DNA of 64,000 nt from an uncultured Solirubrobacterales bacterium (GCA_963820665.1 CAWGAL010000002.1:8598-72597); one strand, 5' to 3'. Shown: positions 18,997 to 46,011, numbered from the stretch's first letter. Translations and numbers: made by a program. Notes: generated by a model not told the origin, from the sequence alone.

Positions 18997-18999
18997 GCC

Positions 19000-19157
19000 C
19001 TAGGCCTCTTCGCTGTCGCGGGTCGCCGCGTAGGCGCCGATCGCCGCCACGGCCGCGACGCCGACGCCGATCGCGGCGGCGGTGCGGATCTCGGAGCGGT
19101 AGCGGGCCGCACGAACCCGACGACGATGCGACCGATCAGCTCGTAGATCGCGCTCAT
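19000..19157 (-). pseudogene. small membrane protein ORF (needs one frame change)
   Basis: ATG 19157 with GAAAGG upstream gives MSAIYELIGRIVVGFVR. Shifting frame then gives RYRSEIRTAAAIGVGVAAVAAIGAYAATRDSEEA-stop (complement of 19000-19002). Weak call. Confidence 0.3.
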
Positions 19158-19179
19158 CTCTGGTGCCTTTCTCTCGTTT

Positions 19180-20466: not shown

Positions 20467-20556
20467 TGGCGGAGCAGTTTCGCACGGGCGGCGACCAGCG
20501 AGCTTCGCGGCCCGGGCCTTGAGCGCGCGCTGGGGCGCCCCTGCCAGAATGCGCCC

Positions 20557-21247
20557 ATGCGCCGCTTCGCCCGCATCCTCTCCACCGCCCTGATCACCGC
20601 CGGCATGGTGGTCTTCGCCGATGTCGCGGTGACGCTGCTGTGGCAGGAGCCCGTCTCGGCCGCGTACGGAAACCTCCAGCAGGGCAAGGCCGAGGACGAC
20701 CTGGCGGACCTCGAGACCGACTTCGCGGCCGAGACCGAGGCGCTCGGCGAGATCGCCGCGGAGAAGCGAACCAGGGTGCTCGCAAAGCTGTTCGAGCGCG
20801 AGATCTCGCAGGGCGACGCGATCGGCCGCATCCGGATCCCGAGCATCGGCCTCGACACCGTGCTGATGAACGGCACCGACACGGCCACCCTTCAGAAGGG
20901 GCCCGGCCGCTTCCCGCAAACACCCCTCCCCGGGCTTGGACGGCACCACGGGGATCGCCGGCCACCGCACCACGTACGCCGCCCCGTTTCGGAAGATCGA
21001 CCAGATCGACGACGGTGAGGAGATCCAGGTCAAGCTCCCCTACGGGACCTTCAACTACGAGGTCGAAGGCCACGAGATCGTCGACCCGAGCGACGTCGAG
21101 GTCGTGTTCCCCGTCGGCTACGAGAGGGTCGTCCTGACCGCGTGCCACCCGCTGCACAGCGCGGCGCAGCGCTACGTCGTCTCTGCCCGCCTGACCGACA
21201 TCGAGACTTTCGGCGGCGCCGGCGAGGACCGCTGGCCCGCTCCCTGA
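20557..21247 (+). pseudogene. sortase (class D/E-like transpeptidase), one frame change near 20930
   Basis: The N-terminal TM anchor (ILSTALITAGMVVFADVAV) and IGRIRIPSIGLDTVLMNGT are in ORF 20557-21018. GIAGHRTTYAAPF (His), VVLTACHP (catalytic Cys, TLxTC-like) and RYVVSARL (Arg) are in ORF 20936-21247. Confidence 0.8.
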
Positions 21248-21253
21248 CGCCCG

Positions 21254-22171
21254 CTAGCGCGGCGTGAAGCTGTCGAGCGTCGCCTCGGCCTCGCGCACCT
21301 GACGGCGCGAGGCGTTCCCCTCCACCCGCTTAAGGAGCAAGTAGGACACTCCCCCTCGCGAGAAGAAAGTCGCGATCTCCTCGCCGCCGTCGTAGCTGAT
21401 TCGGGCGCGAGCCACCGCCCTGCCCTTGAACTTCGCCGGGTAGAGGGGGCCCACCACCGCACCGTCGTGGCGCTGTTCGAGGAAGAGCTCCGAGGTATCG
21501 GCGAACTCGATCGGCGAGAGATCGCTCGGGCCGAAGTAGACGGTCACCGCGGCGCTTTGGTCGGGCGCCTCGATCTCCGCCTTCTCGTCGTCTGAGTCGA
21601 CGGCCTCCCAGCCCGCCGGAACCCCGATCGAGAAGACGTCGGCGAACGTGCGGCGCTCGAGCTCGACGCCGTTCACCGTCAGCTTCTTCGGCGGAGCCTG
21701 CGGCTCCGGCTTGACGGGGGCGGGGTCTGGTTCGACGGCCGCGCTCGGAGCCGGATCCGGGTCGGGAGCCGGCTCGTCGTCATCGGATCCGAGCACGGCG
21801 GCGCCCACCACCAAGGCCGCGGCGCAGATTCCCAGCACCGCGAGCGGGACGCCGATGCGACGGCGCGCGGAGGGCTTGGATGGACGCTCGGCGGTGCGGC
21901 GGGCCTGCTCGAAGTCGGCGGCCTTGACAGCCGCGTACGGCTTCCCCGCCGTGGCGGGCGGAATCACGCTGCCCGCCGCGTCCATGTCGCCCGCCTCCGC
22001 CATCCGGTAGCCGGTGCTCTTTCCGCAGCCCTCGCAGCTGATGCGGAGCCTGCCGCTACCGGCCTGGTCGGAGCGTTCGACGTTGAAACCCGCGTCGCAG
22101 GCCTCGTGCTCAGCGAGGAACTGCGCGATGCTCGGCGCGCCCCCGCCCTTGAATCTCTCCCCAGGCGCCAT
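21254..22171 (-). CDS. membrane protein with cytoplasmic Cys/His zinc-ribbon-like N-terminus and extracytoplasmic domain
   Basis: 305-aa ORF containing FLAEHEACDAG...RISCEGCGKS (H-x2-C ... C-x2-C), one TM helix (IGVPLAVLGICAAALVVGAAVLG), a Pro/Asp-rich linker and a C-terminal domain of about 150 aa. Last gene of the operon containing the priming transferase. Confidence 0.55.
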   Translation of the reverse strand: MAPGERFKGGGAPSIAQFLAEHEACDAGFNVERSDQAGSGRLRISCEGCGKSTGYRMAEAGDMDAAGSVIPPATAGKPYAAVKAADFEQARRTAERPSKPSARRRIGVPLAVLGICAAALVVGAAVLGSDDDEPAPDPDPAPSAAVEPDPAPVKPEPQAPPKKLTVNGVELERRTFADVFSIGVPAGWEAVDSDDEKAEIEAPDQSAAVTVYFGPSDLSPIEFADTSELFLEQRHDGAVVGPLYPAKFKGRAVARARISYDGGEEIATFFSRGGVSYLLLKRVEGNASRRQVREAEATLDSFTPR

Positions 22172-23715
22172 CAGCGAGGCGAAAGCTATCCGCTAGGTGA
22201 CTTCCACGCTCGCGGGGACCTGCTCCTCGGCCGCGGGCTCGGACGGCGACGATGAAGCGCTCGTCGGGCCGGTTGATCGGCTCGGGGACGACGACGGTGC
22301 TGAGCGTCTCGAGCATGATCAGCAGGTCGAACAGCACCGAGCGGCGCTTCAGGTAGAAGAGGTCGTGGCAGAGCTTCCAGGCGCTGCCGATGTGGCTGCC
22401 GGAGTAGCCGCAGCGCACCTGAGCCCAGCCCGTGATGCCGGGCTTGACCAGATGCCGGCGGTCGTAGTAGGAGAAGCGGCTCTCCAGGTCGATCACCAGG
22501 CTCGGCTGCTCAGGCCGGGGGCCCACGAGGCTCATCTGCCCCTTCAAGACCAGCCAGAGCTGCGGCAGCTCGTCGATGTGCGTGCGGCGCAGGAAGCGCC
22601 CGACCAGGGTGATTCGGTCGTCCTCGTTGCCGGTCCACATCGGGCCGTCGTCGTGAACGCGCATCGTCCGCAGCTTCACGAGGTCGATCGCCTGCCCGCC
22701 CTCGCCCATCCGCGGCTGGCGGTGCAGCACCGGCCCGCGGTCGTTCAGCTTGATCGCAAGCGCCGCCACGATCACGAGGGGGGCCGCGATGATCGCCGCG
22801 ATCGTGCCGAGCGTGAGGTCCAGGATTCGCTTGGAGATCGGCCAGCTCGCGCGGTAGCGCGGATGCAGCAGGTACTGGAACCAGGCCGAGGTCGTGGTGC
22901 CGAGCGGGACGTGGCCGAAGAGCTCCTCGTAGAGCTGCCCGGCTTCGATCATCGATACGGGCAGGTCCAGGCAGGCGTCGGCGACCAGCTCGAAGACTTC
23001 GAGCCTCGAAACGCCGGCGGACTGGAACTGCCCCTCGGATTGCTCCGTCGAGGCCTGGCTCAGAGGGCCGAGCACGAGGAGCTCGACTCCGTTGTCGGAT
23101 GATCGTCCCGCGCAACTCGGTGAGCGAGCCGAGACAGCGGATGCCCGCCACCTCGTCCTCGACGCAGGCGTGCTCGGGATCGATGCAGCCGACGACGCGG
23201 TAGCCGTGCACGCCGACCGCCTCGAGCTCGGCCTCGAGGCCGCGCGCGAACTCGTGCGAGCCGATCACCGCGACCTGCACCTCCCGCCCGCGCCGGAAGT
23301 TGTAGGTGACCATGGCGCCCAGTGCCGTCACGACCCAGGCGCCGATCACCGGCGCGACCATCTCGGAGGCCGTGATGTCGCTGACCGAGTAGCCGTCCCA
23401 GGCGCTGATGGCGATCGCCAACCCAGCGCCGAGGGGCGCGGCCGCTGCGTAGAGGGTCGCCGATGCGAACGGGATCAGGTGCAGCGGGTACTGGGGCCTG
23501 CGCAGCACCATCGAGACGCCGAACGCCGACCCGAAGACCAGCAGGGCCTGCCACTCGGACTCGAGGTGCGCGTAGACGATCGCCGCAGCCGCGAGGGCCG
23601 GAGCGATCCGCAGCGTCACCAGCTCGACCAGGCGCTGAGCGGTCAGACCGCTCAGGTGCGGGAACGAGCGGCGCGGCGGAGTCTCACGAGCGAGATGCCT
23701 CTGCCCGTCGCTCAT
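22110..23715 (-). pseudogene. polyprenyl-phosphate glycosyl-1-phosphate (priming) sugar transferase, WbaP/EpsB-like; one frame change near 23080
   Basis: The N-terminal polytopic part and the Rossmann-like VAVIGSHEFARGLEAEL are in ORF 22510-23715. The catalytic bacterial sugar transferase domain is in ORF 22110-23075 ([58 protein letters not shown]). Confidence 0.8.
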
Positions 23716-23740
23716 CTCAATGTCCCAGTGGGGAGCCCTG

Positions 23741-24072
23741 CTAGGAGCTGGGATCCCGCGGCATGGACAGCCTGCGCAGCGCGAACCCGGTGCCCGTGAG
23801 CATCAGTGCAACCGCGGCGATGATCAGCAGGTCCATTCCGGTGAACGGAAGGGAGCCGATCGACGCGCTGAGGCCGCTTTCCTCGCTGCCGGTTGCCGGC
23901 CGCCGGCACCGGAGGCGCCGCCACCGGCGGTGCCCTCTTCGATGTTCGGCGGGTTGTACTGCGCCGACGACGGATCGTCGGTCTGAGCGACTGCCATGGG
24001 TGCAGCTGCGAAAGCCCCCACAAGGGCAACCGCCACGATCATGCCAAAACGGCTGAGCTTTGTCTTACGCAT
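23741..24072 (-). pseudogene. small secreted acidic protein with LPFTG sortase sorting signal (needs one frame change); paralog of 10752-11060
   Basis: ATG 24072 with a GAAGGA SD. Frame 1 reads MRKTKLSRFGMIVAVALVGAFAAAPMAVA/QTDDPSSAQYNPPNIEEGTAGGGASGAGG. After a frame change at approx 23895-23925 it continues PATGSEESGLSASIGS-LPFTG-MDLLIIAAVALMLTGTGFAL-RRLSMPRDPSS-stop (complement of 23741-23743). The ORF track shows only the 82-aa frame-1 product. The gene lies 25 nt upstream of the priming transferase start. Confidence 0.55.
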
Positions 24073-24342
24073 TTGGTTTCAATCCTTCTCTAAGTTCGGG
24101 GGCTATTCGTTCGGTACTTCATGTGGTTCGGATCACACTGGTACGGAACATCGTCAGGCAAGTGCTCAGCCTTGAGCGCAGCATACTACCTAATTTTGGA
24201 GAGCTGGGCCCCTCGCCCAACTTCCGCACTCAAACATCACCCTTGCCCGTCGCGGGCATGATAGTCGGTCGTAATCCCGGAAAAACAACCGCCTGTTTCG
24301 GGTAATCATCGCGATTCCTCACGCCTGGAGATACGGATGCAC

Positions 24343-26323
24343 TCACTTCTGGGCGGCGATTTCGTCCGCCAGCGTCGGCGATCTCCTCCCCGCGCGGGTT
24401 CAGTTCGCGGGCTCGCTGCAAGGCGCGGTTCGCCCCCGCGGATCGCTCGCCGCGAGCACCTGGGCGCGGATGTAGTACAGCGTCCATTCCTCGGGCTGGC
24501 GGTCCTCGGCCTCGTCGAGCGCGGCCAGGGCACGTGCGCGATCCCCGTTGCGGTCGGCGATCACCGCCTCGGCCGCGAGGGCGCGCTCGCTGAACGGGTT
24601 CAGGTCGGCTGCGCGGTCGAGGTCCTCGTAGGCGCCCTCGGGGTCGGCGCCCCCGGTCCGGATTCCCTCGTTCGTGTAGCGCTCGCTGAAGAAGAACGGG
24701 AGCAGGCTCAGCGCCGCGACGACCGCGGCGCACGGCGAACCCGATTCGCAGACCGCGGCTCGGCCCCGGTCCCGGGTTGCGCAACGCCGGCGCGGCCGCG
24801 GCGCCGAGCACGAACGCCATCGGCAGCGTGATCACGGGATAGGACCAGAACCACTCCACCGAGGCGTGCACGAGCCAGTAGCCGGCGACCGCCAGCGCCC
24901 CGGCGACCAGCGCAGCCGCCTGCGGCCCTCGCCTGCGCGATCGAAGCGCCGCCCAGGTCCCCGCCACGACGAAGACGCCGAACAAGAGCAGCCCCGGCAC
25001 CCCGAGCTCGGAGGCCATCAGCATGATCACGCTGTGCGGGTCCTCGGGTTGCAGCGTGGACTCCTTGTCGCGCAGGTAGCTGAACCGCCATCCGCCGGCC
25101 CCGACGCCGCCAGCCGGGTTCGCGGCGAGGTCGTCGATGGCGACGCGCCAGAAGTCGCCGCGGTCGGAGGACAGGTCGAGGCCGAAGCGGCTGCCCTTCG
25201 AGCTCAGGTCGGGGGTGCCCGCGGTGAGCTCGTCCGTCTGGTTGTCGATGAACTCGCGCGGTCCCCCGCCCGAGGCGACCACGGCGATCGTGCCGGCCAC
25301 CACGACCACCGCGGAAGACGCCGGCGAGCACGCGGCCCAGCAGCCGCCCGCGCCGCTCGGAGAGCTCGATCAGCGGGTCCCGCCAGGCTGCGAACGCTCC
25401 GATCACGGCCGAGACGGCGCTGGTGATGGCGATCGCCGCGGCGGCCGAGCGCAGCGGGTCGAGCGATGCCGCGGTGTTGCCGCCCTCGGTCTGGAAGACG
25501 TCGAGCAGCCACGGCAGCGCGGGCAGCACCGGCAGCACCGCCAGAGCGAGCCAGCCGAGGATGCGAAGCCGCTCGGGATGGGCTGCGACGAGCACGGCGA
25601 CGCCGGCCGCGAGGGCGAAGACCGAGGTCCGGCTCTGCGAGAGCACCGCCAGCTCGATCGCGAGCGTCGCCGAGCCCACCAGGAGCCCGCGAAGCCGCCA
25701 GTCCAGCCCGTCGCGCGCCGCCGCCAGGACGACCATCGGGAACATCGCCATCAGGAAGAAGCCGGCCACGGCGTTGCGGTAGCCGACGGGATAGCGAAGC
25801 GTGGCGTCGATCTCGAGCAGCTCGGTGGAGTTGTCGCTGACGGCGAGCGCGATCAGGGTGGCGACGCCGACGAGCGCCCCGGCCACCGCCAGCGGCGCGA
25901 GCGCGAGCAGCACCCTTGGCCCGAGCAGCGAGCAGAGCCAGAGGCCGAGCACGAACGCGACCGCGTAGGCGAGCACCCGCTGGGCGTCCTCGATCGCGAT
26001 GTCGGGAGCGGGTGACCAGGTCGCCGAGATGAGGGTGAGCAGCGCGATTCCCCCAGCAGCGCGACGAGGCAGACGAGCGCTGGGCCCCGGAGGCGAGCCG
26101 GCAACGGAGCGAACAGCAGCAGGGCGACGAGCAGGCCGAGCAGCCCGATCGTCCCGGGCAGGAGCGTGACCCCGAAGTAGGCACCCCGCTCCCAGGCGAA
26201 CCATGCGATCAGGGCCGCGATCAGGCCCAGGGGGAGCAGCGCAGCGGCCAACGAAGGGGGCCCCGCTGCCGCCGGAGTCGCGGGCGTTCGCGAGGTCTCC
26301 ACGCCGGGGCCGGGGTCAACCAT
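24343..26323 (-). pseudogene. O-antigen ligase/Wzy-like polytopic membrane protein fused to C-terminal TPR-like repeats; several frame changes
   Basis: Start ATG 26323 (MVDPGPGVETS.., the tail of ORF 25853-27106). TM-rich pieces lie in ORFs 24708-26204 and 25204-26184. The Wzy_C-like region is GGWRFSYLRDKESTLQPEDPHSVIMLMASELGVPGLLLFG (ORF 24230-25309). The TPR-like part reads EGAYEDLDRAADLNPFSERALAAEAVIADRNGDRARALAALDEAEDRQPEEW..RALQRARELNPRGEEIADALADEIAAQK-stop. The 3' end at 24343 depends on accepting the last frame change. Confidence 0.65.
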
Positions 26324-26398
26324 CGGCGTGCACACCCACCATGTAACGCAAGCTATCGGGGTCTGACTGTCAGAATGGCGGCCCGCCGGATTTTCCCG

Positions 26399-27930
26399 AT
26401 GGCCCAGACCCCGACTAAAAGCGCAGAGTGGCTCGAGTCCCCTGCGGAGGAGGAGGGTCTTCGACGCTACGTCGAGACGATCCGCGAGCGCCTGCCTCTG
26501 GTGGGGGTCGCGGTGGCTGTGACGACGCTGGTGGCGATCCTCTACGTGCTCACCGCGCCGAAGACCTATGAGGCGCGCGCCGACCTGCTCGTCACGCCGG
26601 TCTCCGGCGACGACCCCGTCGCCCGCAGCCTGCCGGTGATCGTCGAGTCCGTCGACCCGACGCGCGACGTCGAGACCGCCTCGCAGTTCGTGACCAACAT
26701 CGATGTCGCGGCGAAGGGTCGCCGAGGACGGGGATTCGGAGCCTCCTCGCGACCTGCTCGACAAGGTCTCGGCGGAGCCGGTCGCCTCGAGCAACATCGT
26801 CGCGATCACGGCCGAGGGCGGATTCGCCTGAGGCGGCCCGCGACCTCGCCAACGACTTCGCCGAGGCCACCGTCGAGGACCGGACCGACGCAGATCCACG
26901 AGTCGATCGAGGTCCTGCTGCCCCCCCTCGAGGCGCAGCTCGAGCACAGCCGACCAGACGTGGTTCGGGAGGAGCTCGGCAGCGACGTGGCGCGCTGCAG
27001 CGCCCTGCTCGTCGCCCCCGCCCCCGACCTCCGCGTCGAGACGAAGGCCGACCTTCCAACCTCGCAGGCCTCGCCCCAGGCCGGTGCTGAGCATCGTCGG
27101 CGGCATGCTCGCCGGGCTGGTGCTCGGGATCGCCGGCGCCTTCGCCGCGCAGAACCTCGACCCGCGGCTCCGCCGCGAGACGCAGCTTCGCCGCCTCTAC
27201 CGGCTCCCGATCCTGGCCCGCATCCCGAAGGAGACCGGGAGCCCGGCCACGCTCCGCTCGGGCCCGACCGGCTCTCGCGCGTCGGCGCCGAGGCCTACCG
27301 GACCCTGCGCTCGACCCTCGAAGCGTCGCGCCGCGGCGACAGGGCTCGCGGGTGATCCTGGTCACCGGCCCCTCGCCCTCGGAGGGCAAGAGCACGACCG
27401 CCGTCAACCTCGCCTCTTCGCTCGCGCTCTCGGGCAAGCGCGTGATCCTGATCGAGGCGGACCTGCGGCGCCCGGCCCTCGCCGAGGCGCTTGACGCCCA
27501 GCCGACAAGGGCGGCGTGGTCAGCGTGCTGCTCGGGGAGACCAACCTCGAGGACGCGCTCACCGTCCCGCCGGCCTTCGGCGAGAACCTGGAGTGCCTGC
27601 TGGCCGACAACGAGACGACGGCTGGATCGTCGAGCTGTTCTCGATTCCGCCGCGCGGACGATGATCGAGGACGCGCGCCACCTCGCCGACTACGTGATCA
27701 TCGACAGCCCGCCGCTGAACGAGGTCGTCGACGCGATGCCGCTCGCGCGCCAGGCCGACGACGTGCTGATCGTCGTCCGGCTCGGCAAGACCCGCCTGCA
27801 GCGGATCGGGCAGCTCGGCGAGCTGCTGGCCGAGAACGGCGTTCGCCCCGTCGGGTTCGCCGTCGTCGGCGTCCCCCGGCCCGGCAGAGGCGAGTACCAC
27901 TACTACCAGAGCGGGCAACGAGGCGTTAAC
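26399..27930 (+). pseudogene. polysaccharide co-polymerase (Wzz domain) fused to BY tyrosine autokinase (Wzc/EpsG-like); at least 4 frame changes
   Basis: Wzz-type N-terminus with a TM helix (LPLVGVAVAVTTLVAILYVL) and a second TM (LSIVGGMLAGLVLGIAGAFAA). Walker A VTGPSPSEGKSTTAVNLA, A' VILIEADLRRP, Walker B DYVIIDSPPLN, and a Tyr-rich end GEYHYYQ. The 3' end is approximate. Confidence 0.75.
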
Positions 27931-28082
27931 ACCCTGAAGAGAATCGGAATCAGCAGCGCTCTCTGTTCCGGGGGCTCCTGCCGAGAACGGTTGGCCCGGC
28001 TTCGCGGTGGTCGTCCAGGCTCGACGGGGAGCTGGCGTGGGCGGGCGCCTCCTGACGCTTGCCGCGGCGACGGTCGGGCGTC

Positions 28083-29380
28083 ATGGCGGGCTATGACCCA
28101 CGCGTCGCGATCGCGGTCGCCCTCTCGGCGGCCTTCGTGCTCGTCGCCTTCGCCGATCTCGCCATCGGGCTCGCGATCTTCGCTTTCCTCGGCTTCGTCG
28201 AGGTCGTGCCGGTCGTGTCCCGCGCTCAGCCCCACCAAGCTACTCGGGCTATTGCTGACTCTCTCGTGGTTCGCGGTCCTGACGACCGGGCGGGGAGCTC
28301 GGCTCGATTTCGTCGCGTGCATCCCATCGTGTCCACCGCACTGGGGTTGTTCTTGGGTGGGTCGCGTTGAGCACGCCCTGGGCGGAGGATCCCGCGGCCG
28401 CGCTGGCTCCACCTCCCGTTACGGCCTCAACCTGGTGCTGTTCGTGATCGTGTTTACGGCGGTCCGTACCGCGGGGGACCTCGGCCGTGTCCTGGTCGGC
28501 TTCATGCTCGGGGCGTCGGTTGCTGCCATCTTCGGGATCGCGTCCCCAGCCCCGGGGATCGCCGGCCGCCTGGGCAGCGTCGTGCTCGATCCTAACGAGG
28601 TCGCGGTGCTGGTCTCGGGTCGCCTGCTCGCCGTCGGGGTGGTCGCGCTCTACCGCAGCGCCCCGCTGGTTGATCCGGCCGCGGCCACCGGGGTCTGCGT
28701 GCGCCCGGTGTCTGGCTCACGGCGTCACGCGGCGGACTGATCGCGCTCACGGTCGCCCTCGTGCTCGCGATCTTCGTCGCGGGCCGCTGGCGCCCCCCGA
28801 TGGCGGTCGGCGCCGCCTGCTCGCCGCCGCCAGCGTCGTTTACTTCTCCGGGTTCGCCTCGGCCGACGTTCAGGAGCGGATCACCGAGCCGACTCAGCGG
28901 ACAGGCGCGCCTCCAGGAGGGCCGCACCACCATCTGGCAGGTGGCGTGGCGCTCGGTCGAGGCCAACCCCGCGGAGGGCCTCGGCGCCGGGAACTTCGCG
29001 GTCTCCTCCAAGCATTATCTGCTAGAGCCCGGCGCTCTCGCACGCTCCGACGAGATTATCGACGAGCCGAAGGTCGCCCACAACAGCTACCTCGGAGTCC
29101 TTGCCGAGCTCGGCATGGTCGGGTCTGCCTGTTCGTGCTGATCGTCGGGTTCTCGGTTGCCTCGATGCTGATCGCCGCGCGACCTTCGGCGCCCGGGCGA
29201 CACACGCATGCAGGGGGTCTCGCTCTGCGTGGCGGTCGCTATGCTCGGCCACCTCGCCGCGGGCTTCTTCGTCTCGGGTCAGTACGGCGGGACGCTGTGG
29301 CTGCTGATGCGGCTCGGCCCGGCGCTGCTGGCGATCGCCAAGTCCTCGGTCGCCGGGGCGCGACGACGGGCTGCAACCCT
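28083..29380 (+). pseudogene. second O-antigen ligase/polymerase (Wzy)-like membrane protein; several frame changes
   Basis: Starts MAGYDPRVAIAVALSAAFVLVAFADLAIGLAIFAFLGFVEVVP and has multiple TM segments. The Wzy_C-like loop is RTTIWQVAWRSVEANPAEGLGAGNFAV...KVAHNSYLGVLAELGMVG (ORF 28761-29141). The 3' end is uncertain. Confidence 0.6.
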
Positions 29381-29535
29381 AGCCACGACGCGCTGCTCGC
29401 GCTCAACTACACTCGCGCGAGCCGATACGGTCTGGACCAGGAGTCCGAGGAAGGGATTAGATGGGCACCCGGACGGGTATCCAGACACCCCTCGGAAGTT
29501 TAGCGGCACACCGTTCGAGGTCGACAAATCCGCTG

Positions 29536-31517: not shown

Positions 31518-31634
31518 ACAGCCCCCACATCGGAACCCGTGGCCACCGGGAGTTCGCCGTAGAGCCGGACGCGCATTACTCTAGTTTTGCGCAGTAAAGT
31601 CCACAACTACGCTTCGGCGAGTTCCAGCCACGCG

Positions 31635-33312: not shown

Positions 33313-33390
33313 TCTCTGTAGTTTCGCCGATATGCCCGTACTCCCTGCGGCAGCCCCAAGCGCCCCGCTTCTCGGAAGCCGCGAGGCGTC

Positions 33391-34953
33391 GTGAGCGAGC
33401 GCAAGCCTTCCACCGCCGGCCTCCTAAGGACCGTGGTCAGAGGCGCCGGCCTGGCCGGGGTCGGCTACGCGCTGGCGCAAGCGCTGACGCTGGCCTCTTA
33501 TCGTGGTGCTGGCCCGGCTGATCTCGCCGGGCGACTTCGGGGACTTCGCCGCCGCCTCGATCCTGGTGAACGCCGGGATGCTCTTCACCGAGTCAGGCAT
33601 GCTGGCGGCGCTGATTCACCGCCGCGACCGGATCGAAGAGGCGGCGAGCACAGCCGTGATCGCCACCTTGGCCGCCGGGCTTCTTTTCGGTCTGATCGCG
33701 CTCGTCGCCTCCCCCCTGGTCGGCGCCTTCTTCGACAGCGACACGATCGCCACCGTCTCCGCCGCGCTCGCGGGCCTGCTCCCGCTTCGCGCCCTGCCGA
33801 TCGTGCCCGAGGCCCTGCTGCAACGCCGCTTCTTGTTCCTGCGCCGAATGGTCTCCGAGCCAGCCGCCGTCGTCGCCTTCGGCACGGTGGCGATCATCGC
33901 CGCCTCCAACGGTATGGGGGTCTGGGCCCTCGTGCTCGGTTACTACGCCTCTGCGGTCACCGACATCATCCTCTCCTGGGCGCTGGTCCGGTGGCGGCCG
34001 CGGCTTGGCCTCGCCTCGTTCGCCGTCTGGCGCGAACTCGTCTCCTACGGACGCCATGTGCTGGCGGCGACCGCGATCCTTCGAGCCGGATCCCAGGTGC
34101 CGAACGCGCTGCTAGGGCGCTACGTGGGCACCGCGCCGCTGGGCCAGTACCGCTACGCCGACCGCATCGCGTCCACACCCTTCTCCGCGATCCTGGCGGC
34201 GGCCTCGTGGGTTCTCTTTCCCGCGTTCGCGCGGATCTCGCACGAGAGCGAGCGCTTCCGCGAGGCATTCCTCCGCTCGCTGCGCTCGATCATGGCCCTC
34301 GCCGTGCCCTTCGGGATGGTGCTGCTGCCGCTGGGGGTGCCGATAGCGGTGGTTGTCTTCGGACCGGTCTGGTACGACGCCGGCGAGGCTGCGATGGCGC
34401 TTTGCCTATACACCGGCGCGGCGTCGCTCATCTCGATCGCAACCGAGGCTTTCAAGGCCGCCGGCAGGCCCGAGCTGCTGACCAGGACCCACCTGCTGAC
34501 GGTGGTATTCGGCTCGATCTTGATGGTCGCCCTGCTCCCGTTCGGTCTCGTCGGCGTCGCCGCAGGCATCTCGCTGGGGATGGTCGCGGGCGCCGCCTAT
34601 GCGGTCGTCGCCTCGGGCCGCGTGATGGAGATCAGCCGGGGCGCCCTGTTCGATGCATCTGGCCGGCGGCGGCGGCGGCGAGCGTCATGGCGGCAGCCCT
34701 GTTCGGTGTCGAGTACCTGCTCGATGCCGAATCGCACAGCACCGCCGCGGGGCTAGCCCTGCTCGCGGCCGAGGGGGCGATAGGTGCCGCTGTCTACATC
34801 CCGCTGCTGCTCGTCCTCGACCCCGCGATGGAGGAACTGCGGTCGCTGCGCACGAACATGAGGCGCGGCGGCGCGCGGCCCGCGGACGATGCCTACGATC
34901 CGCATGCCGTCGCCGAGGAGCCATACGCAGCCGGACCTGGGACCACAGGATGA
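33391..34953 (+). pseudogene. MOP-superfamily polysaccharide flippase (Wzx-like); two frame changes
   Basis: The 417-aa core is in ORF 33503-34756, with about 12 TM segments (ARLISPGDFGDFAAASILVNAGMLFTESGM...). The N-terminal 35 aa and C-terminal 90 aa are in the frame of ORF 33391-34953. Confidence 0.75.
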
Positions 34954-35894
34954 GCCCACCTCGCTTCAGCGTCGTGATCCCCGCTTACAACGGCAGCCTC
35001 ACGATCGGCGCCACGATCCGCTCCGTCCTCTCCCAGTCCGAACCGAGGTTGGAGTTGATCGTCGTGGACGACGGGTCGAGCGATGGGACTCCTGCAATCG
35101 TTCGCAGCTTCGCCGCTGCGGACCCGCGGGTGCGGCTGCTCGAGCAGGCGAATCAGGGTGTAGCCGCGGCCCGTAACGTCGGGATCGCTCAGGCGAGCGC
35201 CGATTTCGTCAGCTTTCTCGACAATGACGACCTCTGGATGCCACGGTATCTGGCGGCGATGGGCGCCGCACTCGAGGCGGCGCCCGACGCCGGGCTGAGC
35301 TTCGCCGACGGCTGGGCGCTGCACGATGCGATTCGCAGAATCCGGCGGGAGACGCTGTTCGCGGGTTCAAGGCCCCCCTTGCCACTGCCTCCGGATGCGG
35401 GCACGCAGCTGATCGAGCTCAGCAGGGACAACTACATCTGGGGCTCGATCACGGCTCGCCGCACCGTGCTCGAGGAGGTCGGCGGCTTTGATTCCGAGGT
35501 GAACGCCGTCGACGACTATGACCTTTGGCTGAGGATTCTCGCGGCAGGGCATCGGGCGGTCGTCGCCAATGGCAGGCTGATCTTGCAGCGGGCGCGCCCA
35601 GACTCGGTCTCACACGATCAGCTGATGATGCTCGAGCGCACCAGGGACGTCTGCCGACGCCTGGCCGCAAATCAACTCGCCCCTGACGAAGCCCGGACGA
35701 TCGCCGCAGCACGCGTCTCCGCCCTTGGCCGGACGATCTCAGCCCTACAGGGCGCGGGGGGAGCCGCCGCCCGCTGGTACCGCGCGCGGCGGGTGATCGC
35801 AGGACTCCGTGCCCGCCTGCTCGAGCGTCGGCTCTACCCGAGACGACCGCCGGACGAGGTCGCGGAGGCATTCCCGGATCTCGAACGCCTTTGA
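34950..35894 (+). CDS. family 2 glycosyltransferase
   Basis: From ATG 34950 (ATGA overlap with the flippase stop): MSPPRFSVVIPAYNGSLTIGATIRSVLSQSEPRLELIVVDDGSSDGT...FLDNDDLW, the classic GT2 DxD architecture. Confidence 0.85.
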   Translation: MSPPRFSVVIPAYNGSLTIGATIRSVLSQSEPRLELIVVDDGSSDGTPAIVRSFAAADPRVRLLEQANQGVAAARNVGIAQASADFVSFLDNDDLWMPRYLAAMGAALEAAPDAGLSFADGWALHDAIRRIRRETLFAGSRPPLPLPPDAGTQLIELSRDNYIWGSITARRTVLEEVGGFDSEVNAVDDYDLWLRILAAGHRAVVANGRLILQRARPDSVSHDQLMMLERTRDVCRRLAANQLAPDEARTIAAARVSALGRTISALQGAGGAAARWYRARRVIAGLRARLLERRLYPRRPPDEVAEAFPDLERL

Positions 35895-35898
35895 GCGA

Positions 35899-37004
35899 TC
35901 AGCAGGCGCCCCGCGCCACGCAGGGTGCAACGATCCGCAGCTTCGACCATTTGATCCCCTTGTCGACGTTGAACCAATACTCGCCGATGCCATTGTTGTT
36001 GTAGTCCTCCGGCGGCAGCTTCAGCGCCCTCGCGAGCCTCGTCAAGCCATCCTCGGCACCGAAGCTTTGGTATGTAGCACCGCTCTCGATCTCGAAGCCC
36101 CACTCGGTCGCAAGCCCGCTGGTGTCGGAGACGTAGGCCCCGTACCGGCTGAGGGCGATCGCGATCGCCTTGCGGTACCTGGGGATCTTCCACCGTTTGA
36201 TCTTCTTCGGCTTGACGTTGAGCTGAAAATGGGAACCGGTCGGCCAGGAGTGGGCGCTGGGGAGGCCGGCGGCGCGGCAGGGAAGGCCATGGTTGTCAGC
36301 CGGGTAGACGAAAGAATCGGAGCAGGGAACACCCATCACCAGCGCGTGGTCGATCCTGCCAGCCAGCAGCTCTTCGCTCCGGATGATCCCCGCGAGGTTG
36401 CCGAAGTGCGCCGACGTGCCGCCAGAGCCGAGACCGTTGCCATCGATCCGCGTCCTACCGCCCCAGCCGAAGACCAGCGTGCCGCCTGCGTCCGGCTTCG
36501 AGCGCACGTTCCATAGGTCGTACTCCCAGCCGCTCGCCTGGTCGACGATCGTCATGTGAGCGTCGTGGTCGTCCTCGGCGGTGGCGTAGCCTTGGGCTGG
36601 CAGCGCCTGCGCCGGCACGCGGATTTGGTGGCCCTCGATCTCGCAGGTCCCCCAGGGACGGTTGCAGTGCAGCGTGTAGAGCGGGTCGGCGGAGTCCGGG
36701 AAGTAGGTCGGGTTGCCGGCGTCCTGGCCGGGTCGCCTCCGACAATGTAGCTGGCCCGGCCGCCTGAGAGCAGTCGCCTGACCATCGCTTTCGAGCCTCG
36801 CGCAACCCGGCTCTTCTTCGGAATCGCCCGATTGAAGGGGCTGGCGTCGGAATACGGCCGCCAACACGCTCCAGGCAGCACCTCGGGGCTGTTGAAGCTG
36901 CCGAGGCCGTTGCGGAAGCTGCAGTCCGTCGTCTGGGCGGTGGCGGCGCCCCCTAGGGGCGGGGGCGCCGCGAGCATCCCGATCACGGCGAGGATCGCGA
37001 CCAT
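35899..37004 (-). pseudogene. secreted hypothetical protein inside the EPS island (one frame change near 36750)
   Basis: Signal peptide MVAILAVIGMLAAPPPLGGAATA (frame of ORF 36552-37175). The mature part is in ORF 35899-37065 (HDAHMTIVDQASGWEYDLWNV..GWGGRTRIDGNGLGSGGTSAHFGNLAGIIRSEELLAGRIDHALVMGVPC..). I recognise no family. Confidence 0.5.
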
Positions 37005-37267
37005 GCTCAGTCGCCTGCCAAGTTGGGAGCCGACGGGACGGCTGTGAGGCTGAGTACGTGTCCATCGAGTCTCCTCGACTCCGCCCCGCTTTCGTGCCTC
37101 GTCGCGCGATTCGGGCGGATGCGAGTCGATGCGCACATCGACCAGCGATGCCGACCCGAAAGCTGGGTCAACCATGTTTGGACAATAAGCCGATACCGGG
37201 GGCCGGGGGGCTGGACAGACGGTCGAGGGTACTCGGTCCGCCTGACGCCCTCATAAGCTTTAGCCCC

Positions 37268-38392: not shown

Positions 38393-38396
38393 CCGC

Positions 38397-39332
38397 TCAG
38401 ACCGTCCCGCTCTCAAAGCCAGTGACGAGAGCTCGATACGTCTCCGGCACCCCGAGCTCGAGTGGTACCTCGGCTTTCCAGCCAAGGTCTGCCGCCGCCT
38501 TCTCGGGGTCGATGCAGGAGCGCTCGAGCTCTCCGTCGCGAAGCGGGGCGAGCTCCGGCTCGCTATCGATGCCGGCTTCAGCTCGCAGCAGGTCGAAGAT
38601 CTCCTGGACCGGCGCTTCGCGGCCAGTTGCCAAATTGAACACGCCGTCCACGCCTGAGGCCCGCACGAGGCCTTCGACGACGTCGCTGACGTGCACGTAG
38701 TCTCGGGTGGGCTTGCCGTCGCCGTACAGTGTCGCCCGCTGCCCGGACCAGAGTCTGTGGCTGAGGATCGCGACGACCCCTGCTTCGCCATGAGGGCTCT
38801 GGCGCGGTCCGTAGACGTTGCCGAGTCTGCAAACGGCGTGGGCCTGCCCGGCGGCCGCGGCCCAGGTCCGAAGGTAGGCCTCGCCTGCCCATTTGGAGGC
38901 GCCGTAGGGTGCCAGTGGCGCGGGCGGCTGCGTCTCCGGAGTCGGCATCGGCGCGTCGTCGCCGTAAAGCGCTCCGCCGGTTGAGGTGAAGACGACGGGG
39001 GCGGCGTGCTCGCGAGCGATCTGGAGCACGTTGAGCGTGCCCTTGACGTTGACATCGCAATCGCGCCACGGATCGGCGACCGAAACGGTGACCACCGACT
39101 GCGCTCCAAGGTGGAAGATGCGCTCAGGCTTGACGGCGTTCGCCAGCGCCTTTAGCCCTTCGAAGTCCACGATGTCGAGCTCCTCGAGCTCCGCCTCGGC
39201 GGAAACCCGCTCTCGGATCCCGGTCGAGAGGTCGTCGACGGCGATCACGCGGTAGCCATCAGCGAGCAGCCGGTCGACCAGATGCGAGCCGATGAACCCT
39301 GCGCCCCCAGTCACGATCGCGGCCGGCATCAT
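38397..39332 (-). CDS. NAD-dependent sugar-nucleotide epimerase/dehydratase (GalE-like)
   Basis: From ATG 39332: MMPAAIVTGGAGFIGSHLVDRLL (GxxGxxG), a YGASKWAGE catalytic YxxxK, and an SDR-extended fold. Confidence 0.85.
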   Translation of the reverse strand: MMPAAIVTGGAGFIGSHLVDRLLADGYRVIAVDDLSTGIRERVSAEAELEELDIVDFEGLKALANAVKPERIFHLGAQSVVTVSVADPWRDCDVNVKGTLNVLQIAREHAAPVVFTSTGGALYGDDAPMPTPETQPPAPLAPYGASKWAGEAYLRTWAAAAGQAHAVCRLGNVYGPRQSPHGEAGVVAILSHRLWSGQRATLYGDGKPTRDYVHVSDVVEGLVRASGVDGVFNLATGREAPVQEIFDLLRAEAGIDSEPELAPLRDGELERSCIDPEKAAADLGWKAEVPLELGVPETYRALVTGFESGTV

Positions 39333-39339
39333 GGGAAAG

Positions 39340-40547
39340 CTACAGACAACCCGCCAGCACCCGCTCGAGCCTCTCGATGCCGCGATCGCGCAGGTTGTCG
39401 GCGGCGAAGCTCCGCGCGCTTCGCGAAAGCTCCTTCGACCTAGCCGGTTCCCTGCGAAGCAAGGCGATGGCGTCCGCGAGCGCCCTCGCATCCCCGGGTG
39501 GGACCGGGACCCCGGCGTCCCATTCGGCGACGAGACGCTGCGGCTCTCCCGCGGCGGCGACCAAGACCGGTCGACCTAGCGCACAGTAGTCGAATAGCTT
39601 CGAAGGAACGAACTTCTCCAGCTCGGGCTGGGCCCCGAGCGGGACCAGCAGTGCGTCGCAGGCGCGCAGCACCGCCGCCGCCTCGGCTGGCTCGATGAGC
39701 GAGCGAAACTCCACGGCTGCTCCAGGCAGCTCGGCCGCCCTCGCCCGCACAGCGTCGAGCCTGGGCCCTGCCCCGATGACGAGCAGCCGGAACCCCTCTC
39801 CAGCATCGCGGCGGCTTCGACCGCGAACTCCAAGCCCTGGCCGATTCCGACGTTGCCGCCATAGGCCCAAACGAACTCGCCCGCCGCCAGGCTGGCCGCA
39901 GCGCGATCGGGTTCGCGCGCTCCCGCGTCGAGCCACACCTCGGTAGTCCCGTTGGGAATCACGGTCAGCTTGCGCGGCTCGCCGCCCACGGATGCGATCT
40001 GTTCGCGGAACGGCTCGGTCACCGTGACGATCGCCGCGGCGCTGCGGTAGAGCCGGCGCTCGAGGCGCTCGGCCGCACGAATCGCGCGTTCGCCGCTGAG
40101 CTCTCCGAGCACGACGGCTGCCTCGGGCCAGAGATCGCGCACGTCGAAGACCCAGGGAACCCGGTGCCGTCGCGCGATCGTGGCGGCGGCCACTCCGACT
40201 GGAAGCGGCGGCGAGGACGTGAGCACCACATCCGGGCGCGCCATCTGGAACCCCGCCACGACGGCGGAGGCCGCGAAGCTGCCATAGGCCAGCAGCCGGT
40301 TGACCGTCGTCTTGTCGGGCCGCGCGCGGATCCAGACGTGGCTCACCCTCACCCCACCGCCCTCCCGCACGACTAGGCGCTTGCCGTGGTAGCCCTCGGC
40401 GATCACGCCGCTTGGATGATTGGGAAGCGCGCAGATCACCTCGACCTCATGGCCGCGCCCGGCCAAGCCTTCTGCGAAAGCTTGGACCCGCGCGACCGCC
40501 GCGGTCACCTCCGGGACGTAGTGCTGGCTGACGATCAGGATGCGCAC
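39340..40547 (-). pseudogene. GT4 glycosyltransferase (WbuB-like); one frame change near 39790
   Basis: N-domain MRILIVSQHYVPEVTAAVARVQAFAEGLAGRGHEV (ORF 39576-40547). C-domain FRLLVIGAGPRLDAV...FVPSKLFDYCALGRPVLVAAAGE (ORF 39340-39936). Confidence 0.75.
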
Positions 40548-40553
40548 GTGCTC

Positions 40554-42461
40554 TCAGGGACGCCGGACCTGGGCGTCGTCCGCGCCTCCCGAACGGCCGT
40601 GTTTGTCGAGCCAAAGCGAGAGCGTAACGAGGCCCCAGATGTTGCGGCTCAGCTCGTCCCGTCCTGAGACGTGCGTCTCGAGTGTCGCCATTACGGCCTC
40701 GGGGTCGAGGTACCCTTGCGAGCGGATACGCTCGTTGCGAGAGCACCTCACGGGCGAACGGCAGTAGCGGCCCGCGGAACCAGGCGGCCGCCGGCACCGC
40801 GAAACCTCGCTTGCGGCCTTTGACGATCTCCCGCGGGAGCAGCGGGGCGACAGCGCGGCGAAAGAGACGCTTTTTTGCCAGCCCCCTGACTTTGTGGCGG
40901 GCGGGCAGCGCAAGCGCCAGATCGGCGCACGGCAGGGTCGAGGAATGGGACGCGGGACTCCAGCGAGTGGGCCATGCTGGCGCGGTCGATCTTGACCAGG
41001 ATGTCGTCGACCAGGTAGGTGCCCATGTCGATGTCCTGCATGCGGCTCAGGTGCTCGGCGCCTTCCGTCTCGTAGTAGCGGCGGCGGTGCAGCCGCAGCG
41101 GGTCCGATTCCTCCGCAGGTAGGCGCTGCGCCATCAGCTCGGCGCGCGCCTCGGGCGAGAACACCTGGCTCCACGCGGCGTGACGGTCGACGACCGGCAG
41201 GTGCGAGCCGCGTGCGAAGCGCTTCACCCGGTCGTCGAGGCGACGGCTGGTGGCAGTTCCGGGCAGGCGCTCGACAAGGGGGCGAACGGCGCTCGCGACC
41301 CGGCCGATCCGCGGAGCCATGACGTCGCCGACATACCAGTAGTAGCCCCCGAAGAGCTCATCCCCCCCCTCGCCCGAGAGCACGACCTTGACATGCTCGG
41401 CTGCAAGCTGGCTGACGAGGTAGGTCGGCAACGCGGAGTTGTCGGCGAAGGGCTCGTCGAAGACCTCCACGATCTTCGGAAGCAGCTCGTGCGAGTCCGG
41501 ACGGACGACGAGCTCGTGGTGGTCGGTGCCGAAGCGGCGCGCCACCAGCCGCGCGTTGTCCATCTCCGAGAAGCCGGCCTCGTCGAAGCCGATCGTGAAC
41601 GTCTTCACGGGCTCCTCGGATTCGCGGCTGGCGAGCGCGGTGAGCACGCCCGAGTCAATCCCCCCCGAGAGCAGGACGCCGACCGGGACGTCGGAGACGA
41701 GATGCGCTCTGACGGAGTCCTGGAGCCGCTCGCGCAACTCGGCCTCGAGCTCCGCGGCGCTCTCGGAGCGAACCTCGGACGCCGAAGCCGGGCGCGGTCG
41801 TGCGTACTGGACGATCTCGCTGCGCCCTTCGTGGTGGACGAGCAGGCAGCCGGCGGGCAGCTTGCGCGCCTCGCGGAAGATCGACATCGGCGTCGGCACG
41901 AAGTTGAAGGCGAGGTACGCCTCGAGCGCCTCGAGATCGAGCTCGCGCGAGAAGTCCGGCTGCCGGACCAGCGCCTTCAGCTCCGAGGCGAACGAGAGCG
42001 AAGCTGCGACCTCGCGGTAGTAGAGCGGCTTGATCCCGAAACTGTCCCGCGCCAACACCAGGCGTCGGCGCGGAAGATCCCAGAGAGCGATCGCGAACAT
42101 GCCCCGTAGGCGCTCGACGAAGTCGGGGACCCTCGTCCTCGTAGAGGTGCACGAGCACCTCGGTGTCGGAGCCCGTCCGAAGCTCGTGCCCACGCGCACG
42201 CAGCTCCGCTGCCAGCTCACGGTAGTTGTAGATCTCACCGTTCTGGATCACCTGGACGGTGCCGTCCTCGTTGCCGATCGGCTGGTCGCCGCCGGCGAGA
42301 TCGATGATCGAGAGACGGCGCATCGCCAGCCCTACGGGTCCCTCGAGGAAGCTGCCGTCGCTGTCGGGGCCACGGTGCCTCAGCGCCTCGTTCATCGACT
42401 CGAGCACACCGCGGTCGGGCGCGCTGCCGTCCAGCCTGAGCATTCCGCAGATCCCGCACAT
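40554..42461 (-). pseudogene. asparagine synthase (glutamine-hydrolysing)-family amidotransferase; 3 frame changes (approx 42128, 40930, 40740)
   Basis: MCGICGMLRLDG (Ntn Cys2) and the GATase domain are in ORF 41655-42527. The synthetase domain is in ORF 40748-42238 (VGVLLSGGIDSGVLTALA, VVLSGEGGDELFGGYYWY). The C-terminal pieces are in ORFs 40447-40797 and 40554-41174. Confidence 0.8.
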
Positions 42462-42471
42462 TTCGTAGACC

Positions 42472-43599
42472 CTAGGCGGAGCCGGGTGCCGAGATGAACG
42501 CGGCGACCCGTTCGCTCTCGGACTCAATCGTCGTCCGCCCCGCCAGCTCCAGCGCCCGCGACGCCAGCGCGCCCCGCAGCTTTGGGTCGGCCGCGAGCCG
42601 GCGGATCGCCGCCGTCAGGGCGGCGGGGTCGCCGGGCGCCACCAACATCCCCGCCTCGCCGCTACCCAGGGCCTCCCTCACTCCGCCGACGTCCGTGGCG
42701 ACGATCGGCAGCCCCGACCCCATCGCCTCGAGGATGACGCCGGGCACGCCCTCGGTGAGCGAGACGTGAACGAACGCGTCGGTTTCCTGATACAGGTCAA
42801 CGAGGCCGCCTTCGAACGGAACGAAGCCCGGCAATGTGAGCAGGGGCGAAACACCCGCGGCCCGCGCCGCCTCGCGCATCGGGTCCGCGAGCGGTCCCTC
42901 GCCCGCCCAGGTGAGGACGAAGCCAGAGCCAGGGCCGCGGTTCAACTCAGCGAGGGCCGTGACCGCCAGCAGGGGGTTCTTCTCAGCCGCCAGCCGCCCG
43001 ACAGAGAGCAGCCTGACCGGGTCGCCCCACGCCTCGCCGCGCGGCTCCCGTGCAAGGTGGGCTCGATCGAGCTGCGTGACGCGCATGTCGAGCACGTTGG
43101 CGCGCGGTGCACCGTAGTGCTCGGCGATCTCTGCCCCGACGACCGTGGTCCGGGCGCGGCGGCCGATCAGGCGAAAGCAGAGATCGAGCGCTCGAAGCGG
43201 CAGCAGCAGCGGAGCCCAGCGCGCGCTCGGCAGGCGGCTGCGGAAGTAGCGCGGCGAGTCCTGGCGAATCAGCAGGACGACGCGGCGCCGGCGCAGGCCG
43301 GCGAGCACGGCCATCACCAGTCCGAGCGGATTGACGCCCGACACCCAGACCGCATCGAGCTCATCGAGCGCTCGCCACATCTGCCGCACGGTCGCCGGAA
43401 GCGCTGCGAGCACGCGACCGATGCTCCGCAGGCTCGGATAGTGGGGCAGCGGCACGAGCTCGATTTCGCTCGCCAGCACCTCCCAGTCGGCTGCGTCCTC
43501 CGCCGTGCCGATCCGCGCGATCACCGCGAAGCGCTCGAACCTGGAGCCGACCGCGCCGGCGAACCGCATGAAGCCGAGCAGCTCGTCCCCACACAGCAC
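42472..43599 (-). CDS. GT4 glycosyltransferase
   Basis: 375-aa ORF with the C-domain LLSVGRLAAEKNPLL...HVSLTEGVPGVILEAMGSGLPIVATDVGG. GT4-like sequence (IRRLGLFVDATFR) continues upstream of the GTG at 43599 to approx 43650 without a canonical start, so the 5' end is uncertain. Confidence 0.8.
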   Translation of the reverse strand: MLCGDELLGFMRFAGAVGSRFERFAVIARIGTAEDAADWEVLASEIELVPLPHYPSLRSIGRVLAALPATVRQMWRALDELDAVWVSGVNPLGLVMAVLAGLRRRRVVLLIRQDSPRYFRSRLPSARWAPLLLPLRALDLCFRLIGRRARTTVVGAEIAEHYGAPRANVLDMRVTQLDRAHLAREPRGEAWGDPVRLLSVGRLAAEKNPLLAVTALAELNRGPGSGFVLTWAGEGPLADPMREAARAAGVSPLLTLPGFVPFEGGLVDLYQETDAFVHVSLTEGVPGVILEAMGSGLPIVATDVGGVREALGSGEAGMLVAPGDPAALTAAIRRLAADPKLRGALASRALELAGRTTIESESERVAAFISAPGSA

Positions 43600-43699
43600 G
43601 CGGGGAGGGTCTCCCTCGGCGCGGAACGTGGCGTCGACGAAAAGCCCGAGGCGCCGGATCTCGGAGGTCCCTCTCAGCTTGTTCCCTCGGAGGCCGCCG

Positions 43700-43942
43700 C
43701 TATTCGCCGAGCCCGCTGCTGCCGCTGGGCGGAGCGACCCCGCCGTCGCCCGAACTGGTCTCGGTCGGCGGCGCCTGGGTCTCGGTCGACTGCGTCGGTG
43801 GCTGCGTCTCGGTCACGGTGGGTTGGGAGGTCGTGGTCGTCTCGTCCTCGGCGTCGTCGCCCGCTACGACCGCGAGCCCTACCGCGAGGCCGATTACGAG
43901 TGCCAGCAGCAGCCCGATGATCCATCTGGCGTTGGTGCTCAT
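43700..43942 (-). CDS. small N-terminally anchored Thr/Pro/Glu/Gln-rich protein
   Basis: 80-aa ORF: MSTNARWIIGLLLALVIGLAVGLAVVAG (TM) followed by DDAEDETTTTSQPTVTETQPPTQSTETQAPPTETSSGDGGVAPPSGSSGLGE. Confidence 0.45.
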   Translation of the reverse strand: MSTNARWIIGLLLALVIGLAVGLAVVAGDDAEDETTTTSQPTVTETQPPTQSTETQAPPTETSSGDGGVAPPSGSSGLGE

Positions 43943-43953
43943 CGGGGCGAAAG

Positions 43954-45998: not shown

Positions 45999-46011
45999 GT
46001 CGTGGTGGGCT

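Follow-up and report, generated by a model that had tools for sequence, protein, structure and literature searches.

Capsule and O-antigen loci occupy fixed chromosomal sites, as in the cps locus of Streptococcus pneumoniae (dexB/aliA), the O-antigen locus of Escherichia coli (galF/gnd), and the K locus of Klebsiella, and the hallmark of this class of locus is a centre that has been exchanged while the edges stay conserved. A second reference point is the arginine biosynthesis cluster argCJBDFRGH, which in Mycobacterium tuberculosis corresponds to Rv1652–Rv1659. The same cluster has been described in Corynebacterium (PMC4258820, PMC4919616). Here we consider a 64,000-nucleotide stretch from an uncultured Solirubrobacterales bacterium (contig C2, positions 8598–72597; hereafter the window), in which argD and argG are separated by 23.4 kb of sortase and polysaccharide genes. 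A first-pass annotation had taken this interval for an island inserted into, or replacing, the argF–argR portion of a Mycobacterium-like cluster. Our literature search found no paper on polysaccharide loci or on arg-cluster layout in Solirubrobacterales.

As we describe below, the bulk of the interval is probably an ordinary, long-resident, variable surface-polysaccharide locus of the Wzx/Wzy type (exopolysaccharide- or capsule-like), which occupies a fixed slot between argD and argG and which displaced neither argF nor argR. Its product would be a cell-surface heteropolysaccharide.

A Wzx/Wzy-type gene set between argD and argG

The window belongs to a metagenome-assembled genome (MAG) of the order Solirubrobacterales, comprising 2.14 Mb in five contigs at 70% G+C and rated 63.7% complete with 0.16% contamination. 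Genes were called by Pfam scans of open reading frames (ORFs), and reading frames were mapped using tblastn with intact proteins from the nearest congener, G001. The ArgD of G001 is 90% identical to that of the window; the best relatives of the window ArgD are all Solirubrobacterales MAGs (class Thermoleophilia), and within a collection of named genomes they reach at most 72% identity. The stretch separating the start of argG from the stop of argD is exactly 20467–43953, as first annotated, and it contains the following features, given here together with the two flanking genes:

19188–20466, minus: argG (argininosuccinate synthase), left backbone flank; Pfam Arginosuc_synth and Arginosuc_syn_C in three ORFs
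20467–20556, unstranded: divergent intergenic region of 90 bp between argG and the sortase gene, read from the sequence
20557–21247, plus: sortase gene; Pfam Sortase, intact 230-residue orthologue in G001, 1-bp insertion near 20940
21254–22171, minus: membrane protein of no family, first gene of the variable block; no Pfam match
22110–23823, minus: priming phosphoglycosyl transferase; Pfam Bac_transf, 2e-56 (22110–23075), frameshift near 23096
23744–24075, minus: small gene for an LPFTG-type sortase substrate; hand translation and intact 107-residue orthologue in G001
24346–26359, minus: Wzy_C (O-antigen polymerase/ligase-like) membrane protein; Pfam Wzy_C, several frame changes
26375–27942, plus: Wzz chain-length regulator fused to a P-loop tyrosine-kinase-like domain (PCP/BY-kinase); Pfam Wzz, AAA_31, and CbiA, split at about 27340
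28077–29348, plus: second Wzy_C-type membrane protein; Pfam Wzy_C on 28674–29141 and on the intact G001 orthologue, frameshifted
29404–30317, plus: gene without a Pfam match, start of the divergent centre; 36–40% identical to a 327-residue G001 ORF
30434–31571, minus: FemAB/GNAT-like acyltransferase; Pfam Acetyltransf_6, 37–45% identical to a G001 ORF, four frame pieces
31674–32916, plus: D-glucuronyl C5-epimerase-like gene; Pfam C5-epim_C, two frames, 44–49% identical to a 611-residue G001 ORF
32698–33312, minus: GT4 glycosyltransferase, N-terminal half only; Pfam Glyco_transf_4, aligning to residues 3–208 of a 401-residue G001 homologue
33503–34756, plus: Wzx-type flippase (MOP family); Pfam Polysacc_synt_3, 3.5e-57
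34653–35894, plus: GT2 glycosyltransferase; Pfam Glycos_transf_2, 6e-32
35899–37065, minus: protein without a family match; no Pfam match, homologues of about 40% identity in the loci of G020, G022, and L027
37058–38392, plus: GT4 glycosyltransferase; Pfam Glyco_trans_1_4, Glycos_transf_1, and Glyco_transf_4
38397–39491, minus: NAD-dependent sugar epimerase/dehydratase, where the conserved right edge begins; Pfam Epimerase and GDP_Man_Dehyd, 4e-54, 85% identical to G001
39343–40559, minus: GT4 glycosyltransferase; Pfam Glyco_trans_4_4, frameshift at about 39801, 419-residue G001 ORF mapping in two frames
40596–42524, minus: AsnB-like glutamine amidotransferase; Pfam Asn_synthase and GATase_7, four frame pieces, 95% identical to G001
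42472–43599, minus: GT4/GT1 glycosyltransferase, last gene of the variable block; Pfam Glycos_transf_1, 6e-31, 89% identical to G001
43700–43942, minus: small membrane protein, backbone; from translation, one transmembrane helix and a Thr/Glu-rich tail
43954–45129, minus: argD (acetylornithine aminotransferase), right backbone flank; Pfam Aminotran_3, 8e-105, stop codon at 43954–43956

The variable block itself extends over approximately 21248–43699, about 22.5 kb lying between the sortase gene and the small membrane-protein gene, and in total encodes five GT4/GT2 glycosyltransferases, two Wzy_C proteins, and three proteins without a family match. The parts of a Wzx/Wzy pathway that are present include an initiating transferase, a MOP flippase, Wzy_C genes, and Wzz with a kinase-like module. 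The intact 541-residue priming-transferase ORF of G001 maps to 22236–23823 in two frames, and the Wzz fusion, whose second module has a putative kinase role, corresponds to a 598-residue ORF in G001 that likewise maps to the window in two frames. The Wzy_C domain is common to O-antigen ligases, and either of the two genes carrying it could be the polymerase; the protein at 24346–26359 has a C-terminal extension that appears TPR-like by eye, and the 672-residue ORF of G001 maps onto its gene in four pieces.

Toward the sortase end, the first protein of the block (21254–22171) has a Cys motif at its N terminus, a single transmembrane helix, and a C-terminal domain behind a Pro-rich linker. Its orthologue in G001 shares 88% identity with it, and one or two copies are found in G003, G006, and G019. 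An indel in the Gly/Ser-rich part interrupts the LPFTG gene, which is intact in G001. Its peptide is small, secreted, and acidic, with an LPFTG motif, a transmembrane helix, and an RRLS tail, and in the G001, G002, G003, G004, G006, and G019 loci the gene is retained immediately upstream of the priming-transferase gene. Because the sortase, the LPFTG gene upstream of the priming transferase, and the C5-epimerase-like gene co-occur in seven loci, a sortase-anchored core peptide might conceivably serve as the base or attachment point of the polymer, giving a wall-anchored, proteoglycan-like product. We consider this very improbable, and know of no wall-anchored, proteoglycan-like surface polymer described in bacteria. 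A paralogue of the LPFTG gene is located elsewhere in the window (10752–11060, plus).

Signals at the junctions are sparse. No sigma-70 consensus occurs in 20467–20556, the divergent region in which argG probably has its own promoter, and a scan of the junctions for promoter and terminator consensus sequences returned a single weak terminator-like site (43645–43658), not above shuffle expectation, which falls after the small membrane-protein gene.

Conserved edges and a divergent centre

Nucleotide alignment to G001 (blastn) divides the region into five segments:

14897–22196: 92% identity to G001
22193–29330: 81% identity
29.3–38.4 kb: about 68% identity, or no alignment
38407–40584: 85% identity
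40602–49103: 92% identity

Flanks and edges are therefore conserved, and the centre cannot be aligned even to a close relative, which is the profile of a variable glycan locus. The G001 locus has no counterpart for the window's Wzx, for its GT2, for one family-less protein, or for one GT4.

Several local differences from G001 accompany this profile. The truncated GT4 gene (32698–33312) overlaps the 3′ end of the C5-epimerase-like gene, and the order of the pair differs from that in G001; the overlap may be a deletion or rearrangement joint. An additional gene of about 970 bp with a Polysacc_lyase match (Pfam 1.3e-9) lies in G001 at the point corresponding to 40584–40602 in the window, between the GT4 and AsnB-like genes, and is missing from the window. 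Elsewhere in the window, 1934–3677 measures 1.7 kb compared with about 9 kb in G001, and the rpmI–infC stretch (53481–54694) is 65% identical to G001 between flanks at 92%.

Occupancy of the slot among relatives

The block is not sporadic among the closest relatives, as would mark an island: the three genomes of the same genus (3/3) carry one of 23–28 kb at the same site (23.3, 27.9, and 28.3 kb). Blocks occur in these three congeners and in nine other genera, with homologous edge genes, and a gap of 14–33 kb is seen in 12 of the 20 genomes of the window's own family (f1) in which argD and argG share a contig. In G001, G003, and G004 the edge genes share both order and orientation, with the sortase, membrane-protein, priming-transferase, LPFTG, and Wzy genes on the sortase side and the GT4, AsnB-like, and GT1 genes at the other edge. 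On a quick-search tree of ArgD and ArgG (the products of the two flanking genes), all 13 large-gap loci fall into one 19-genome clade with support 100, and all 11 loci outside this clade are short. Six short-gap genomes are nested within the clade, and the tree forces at least five changes of state. Two of the short-gap genomes retain remnants, a lone epimerase gene in G010 and a FemAB-like fragment in G017, which point to deletion of the block.

The sortase gene and the small membrane-protein gene are backbone and lie outside the variable block. The sortase adjoins argG in most of the clade loci examined (the exceptions being G017, G020, and G023), and is assigned to the backbone because it also stands beside argG in genomes with a gap of only about 1 kb (G013, G021, and G024); the same adjacency is seen in G018, outside the clade. 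The small membrane protein has 80 residues, its gene begins 12 bases after argD, and homologues occupy the argD–argG slot in the loci of 17 relatives, short-gap loci included. The initial description of a sortase/exopolysaccharide block was thus too inclusive at its left end (20557–21247).

What remains of the proposal that the interval is inserted accessory DNA is that the block is indeed an insert relative to the argD–argG arrangement ancestral for the order, with variable content and with six nested genomes lacking it. The further steps, that it arose as a replacement of argF–argR or as a recent island, do not hold, the latter because all three congeners and nine other genera fill the slot with 14–33 kb.

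Compositional and mobility signatures

All 4-kb segments of the block fall inside the genome's 5th–95th percentile for both GC content and tetranucleotide distance. At its centre GC is 0.677–0.683, and tetranucleotide distance reaches the 86th–91st percentile of the genome's 4-kb segments; the edges cannot be told apart from the flanks in composition, and GC in the dnaE region is just as low. GC content at third codon positions (GC3), calculated on the cleaner G001 assembly, is 0.77–0.89 for locus genes versus 0.93–0.94 for argG and the sortase gene, and lower GC3 is usual for polysaccharide loci of this kind. A compositional island is ruled out, as GC content and tetranucleotide distance stay within the genome's range.

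Marks of mobility are likewise lacking. No tRNA or tmRNA integration target lies near the block, the sole tRNA gene in the window being tRNA-Val at 61670–61742. No direct repeats pair the 20.4–21.3 kb end with the 43.6–44.0 kb end, including the stretches near 20470–20560 and 43940–43955 in which the first-pass annotation had suggested looking. Among the ORFs scanned across 20.1–44.0 kb, a few of them short or frameshifted and without any match, none has a Pfam integrase, recombinase, or transposase domain.

Probable loss of argF and argR from the junction before any insertion

The setting of the block is a conserved series of minus-strand genes, running rpmI-rplT-SpoU-pheS-pheT-argC-argJ-argB-argD and, after 23.4 kb, argG. 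Pfam scans bear out this synteny as first described, with the following genes beyond argD:

45126–45998, minus: argB
46124–47176, minus: argJ
47173–48210, minus: argC
48203–50698, minus: pheT
about 50709–51830, minus: pheS, in two frames
51872–52624, minus: SpoU/TrmH-like methylase
52679–53038, minus: rplT
53038–53250, minus: rpmI

The segment argB-argJ-argC-pheT-pheS (45126–51830, minus) has identical order in 24 Solirubrobacterales loci. On the other side, argG starts with GTG at 20466, reading VTDPAPDSPRIASF, and past argG lie genes for a LysR regulator, an Rpf-like transglycosylase, a ferritin-like protein, and dnaE. The gene for the LysR-type regulator (17589–18515, minus) separates argG from the Rpf-like gene. 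Members of the genus have it, as do G006, G013, and G019; at an 80-bit threshold it is absent from the set of Solirubrobacterales loci compared.

The window indeed lacks argF, argR, and argH, and sortase and polysaccharide genes lie between argD and argG. We followed argF, argR, and argH in the assembly, the order, and the class. In the window's own assembly (63.7% complete), there is neither an ArgR C-terminal domain (ArgR_C) nor a true argH, and the only match resembling ornithine carbamoyltransferase (OTCase), besides a pyrB-like one, is at C5:502702–503521, in four frame pieces. In an order survey of 41 genomes (the window genome plus 40 Solirubrobacterales relatives), ArgR_C was found in none (0/41), and argF is unlinked in every genome with an argF match (34/34), lying either on a different contig or at a distance of more than 1 Mb. 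Seven genomes from families f2 and f4 (G025, G027, G030, G032, G034, G038, and G040) have argD and argG only 21–72 bp apart, and families f3 and f5, together with one more genome of f4, have gaps of 0.16–3.3 kb. We also asked whether argF or argR lies hidden in the 0.8–1.1 kb gaps of short-gap relatives, and found there two small unrelated ORFs or the sortase gene. Nearly all relatives in which argH and argG share a contig have argH 57–85 kb past argG, on the opposite side from argD (in the exception, G026, at about 410 kb); the corresponding position in the window's assembly runs off the start of contig C2.

The wider class shows the intermediate arrangements. ArgR_C occurs in 40 of 61 genomes sampled from it, adjoining argG in most. 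In this class sample (about 60 genomes), argD-argF-argR-argG is kept in family f11 and part of f10, with argD-argF-argR-argG-argH contiguous in G056; argD-argR-argG, with argF elsewhere, is found in family f9 and part of f10 (G054, G086, G092, and G059); and family f7 has neither argF nor argR at the argD–argG site and no ArgR_C, as in Solirubrobacterales. Because ArgR_C is missing from the order, argF is always unlinked, and argD abuts argG in seven genomes, we conclude that argF and argR left the junction stepwise, long before any insertion. The block does not sit in a place that argF–argR vacated for it: relatives keep the same layout with both genes away from the site, an observation that the first-pass annotation itself had named as refuting its claim, and the position of argH in relatives shows that it, too, was not moved aside by an island.

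The ArgG proteins themselves show a related discontinuity. Solirubrobacterales ArgG is 65–69% identical to that of family f7 and 41–47% identical to that of the ArgR-bearing families, whereas ArgD is 45–54% identical throughout, and the jump in ArgG identity coincides with loss of argF–argR from the cluster. A foreign type of argG in the order was considered and rejected, as the two ArgG types hit identical canonical structures in the PDB and a single NCBIfam equivalog.

Alternative explanations

A recent horizontal island, inserted into or replacing argF–argR of a Mycobacterium-like arg cluster, would fit the coincidence of the interval with the argF–argR position in Mycobacterium and in family f11 of the same class, as well as the slightly lower GC and lower GC3 of the centre relative to the flanks. 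Such an origin is nonetheless hardly credible when argR is absent from 41 of 41 genomes and argF unlinked in 34 of 34, when an intermediate in which argD abuts argG survives in seven genomes, and when the block is found in all congeners with edges 92% identical, is no compositional outlier, and has no tRNA, flanking repeat, or mobility domain. Several observations weigh against a single long-resident locus. In G004 the small membrane-protein gene is found at the sortase end of the block, in the window at the argD end, and in a second subclade (G005, G008, G020, and G022) the gene order differs, with a GT1 gene and a Wzz/kinase gene beside the sortase or argG; both features fit independent insertions or rearrangements. 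Eleven of the 27 inner tree branches are weak, leaving a single gain followed by losses unproven against several gains. Likewise, the variation of the centre is seen between species and genera, one genome per species having been compared, and the product and its location in the cell are predicted from domain families only. The junction might then be an insertion hot spot which separate polysaccharide loci entered several times independently, a history with which the minimum of five state changes and the inserts of 5.6–9.8 kb at the argD–argG junction in other lineages (G046, G067, G090, and G088) are also compatible. We regard this as unlikely, though worth keeping in view, given that every large block is in one well-supported clade, that homologous edge genes keep their order and orientation from genus to genus (G001, G003, and G004), and that the remnants in G010 and G017 point to deletion.

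A separate question is whether the locus functions at all, since many of its genes are spread over two to four frames (the sortase, priming-transferase, both Wzy, Wzz/kinase, FemAB-like, C5-epimerase-like, GT4, and AsnB-like genes, as well as argG), and argJ and pheS are also frame-broken, the latter at about 51354. Most of the differences from G001 are insertions of a single base, and these are patchy (19.3–20.2, 57–59, and 61.7–63.6 kb; in window coordinates 19380–20156, 57100–59020, and 61780–63590). Were the breaks real, argG, argF, and most of the polysaccharide genes would be pseudogenes, and both the locus and arginine synthesis would be defunct. It is true that argG, spread over frames -1, -2, and -3 (tblastn with intact G001 ArgG), has five 1-bp insertions within 0.8 kb (19380, 19747, 19775, 19825, and 20156) and that dnaE, pheT, argC, argB, and argD have none; that argF is broken into four pieces and contains one stop codon; and that one GT4 gene is without its C-terminal half. 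Genuine decay is nevertheless improbable, and the broken genes are most likely single-base assembly errors of a long-read consensus, because patches of mostly one-base insertions also occur outside the block, because the essential pheS is hit, and because completeness is low in an assembly of only five contigs with little contamination. The pattern is usual for unpolished long-read consensus, and the congener assembly G002 (50% complete) is equally fragmented.

Proposed history and implications

For the long-resident polysaccharide locus favoured here, we propose the following sequence of events. An ancestor in the class would have carried argD-argF-argR-argG-argH. Before the radiation of Solirubrobacterales, argF would have been relocated, argR lost, and argH separated, leaving argD abutting argG, and the sortase and small membrane-protein genes would subsequently have entered this junction. 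The polysaccharide locus may then have settled there in one clade of the window's family and been inherited vertically since. Its centre would have been exchanged or reshaped, the likeliest mechanism being recombination through the conserved edges of the kind known from capsule and O-antigen loci, and several genera would later have deleted the locus again.

It follows that a break in synteny with a distant model organism is no sign of recent foreign DNA. The fixed slot for a variable surface-polysaccharide locus in uncultured Solirubrobacterales could serve as a typing marker and offers an entry point for studying how these soil bacteria vary their surface. On the arginine side, one class displays a stepwise cluster history (argD-F-R-G-H, argD-R-G, argD-G, and argD-[insert]-G), and with the ArgR repressor absent throughout this order of abundant soil bacteria, arginine synthesis there must be controlled by another factor. 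Two by-products, the lack of ArgR across the order and the step-by-step breakup of the cluster, are of modest comparative interest.

Comparison with known systems

Compared with the argCJBDFRGH cluster, the window keeps the order and strand of pheS-pheT-argC-J-B-D, and argG is the next backbone arg gene on the same strand. It differs in that argF is unlinked, argR is absent order-wide, and argH is 57–85 kb away, and in that a sortase gene, a small membrane-protein gene, and a 22.5-kb polysaccharide locus stand between argD and argG. With integrative genomic islands it shares accessory genes that break a conserved synteny and are absent from some relatives; unlike such islands, it has no integrase, tRNA, att repeats, or outlying composition, all three congeners carry it, and conservation at its edges equals that of its flanks.

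The closest likeness is to the capsule and O-antigen loci. As in these, a Wzx/Wzy-type gene set is placed between conserved housekeeping genes, with genes for initiation, export, and regulation conserved at the edges and a centre of glycosyltransferase, flippase, and tailoring genes that cannot be aligned between close relatives, somewhat lower in GC and GC3 and free of mobility genes. The differences are that the flanks here are formed by one amino-acid operon, split by the locus; that the host is an uncultured, presumably single-membraned soil actinobacterium; that the locus has a conserved sortase gene and a conserved small LPFTG-peptide gene within or next to it; and that the variation is seen between species and genera, rather than between strains. 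The locus is thus a new example of a well-known kind, and will come as no surprise to specialists in glycan loci.

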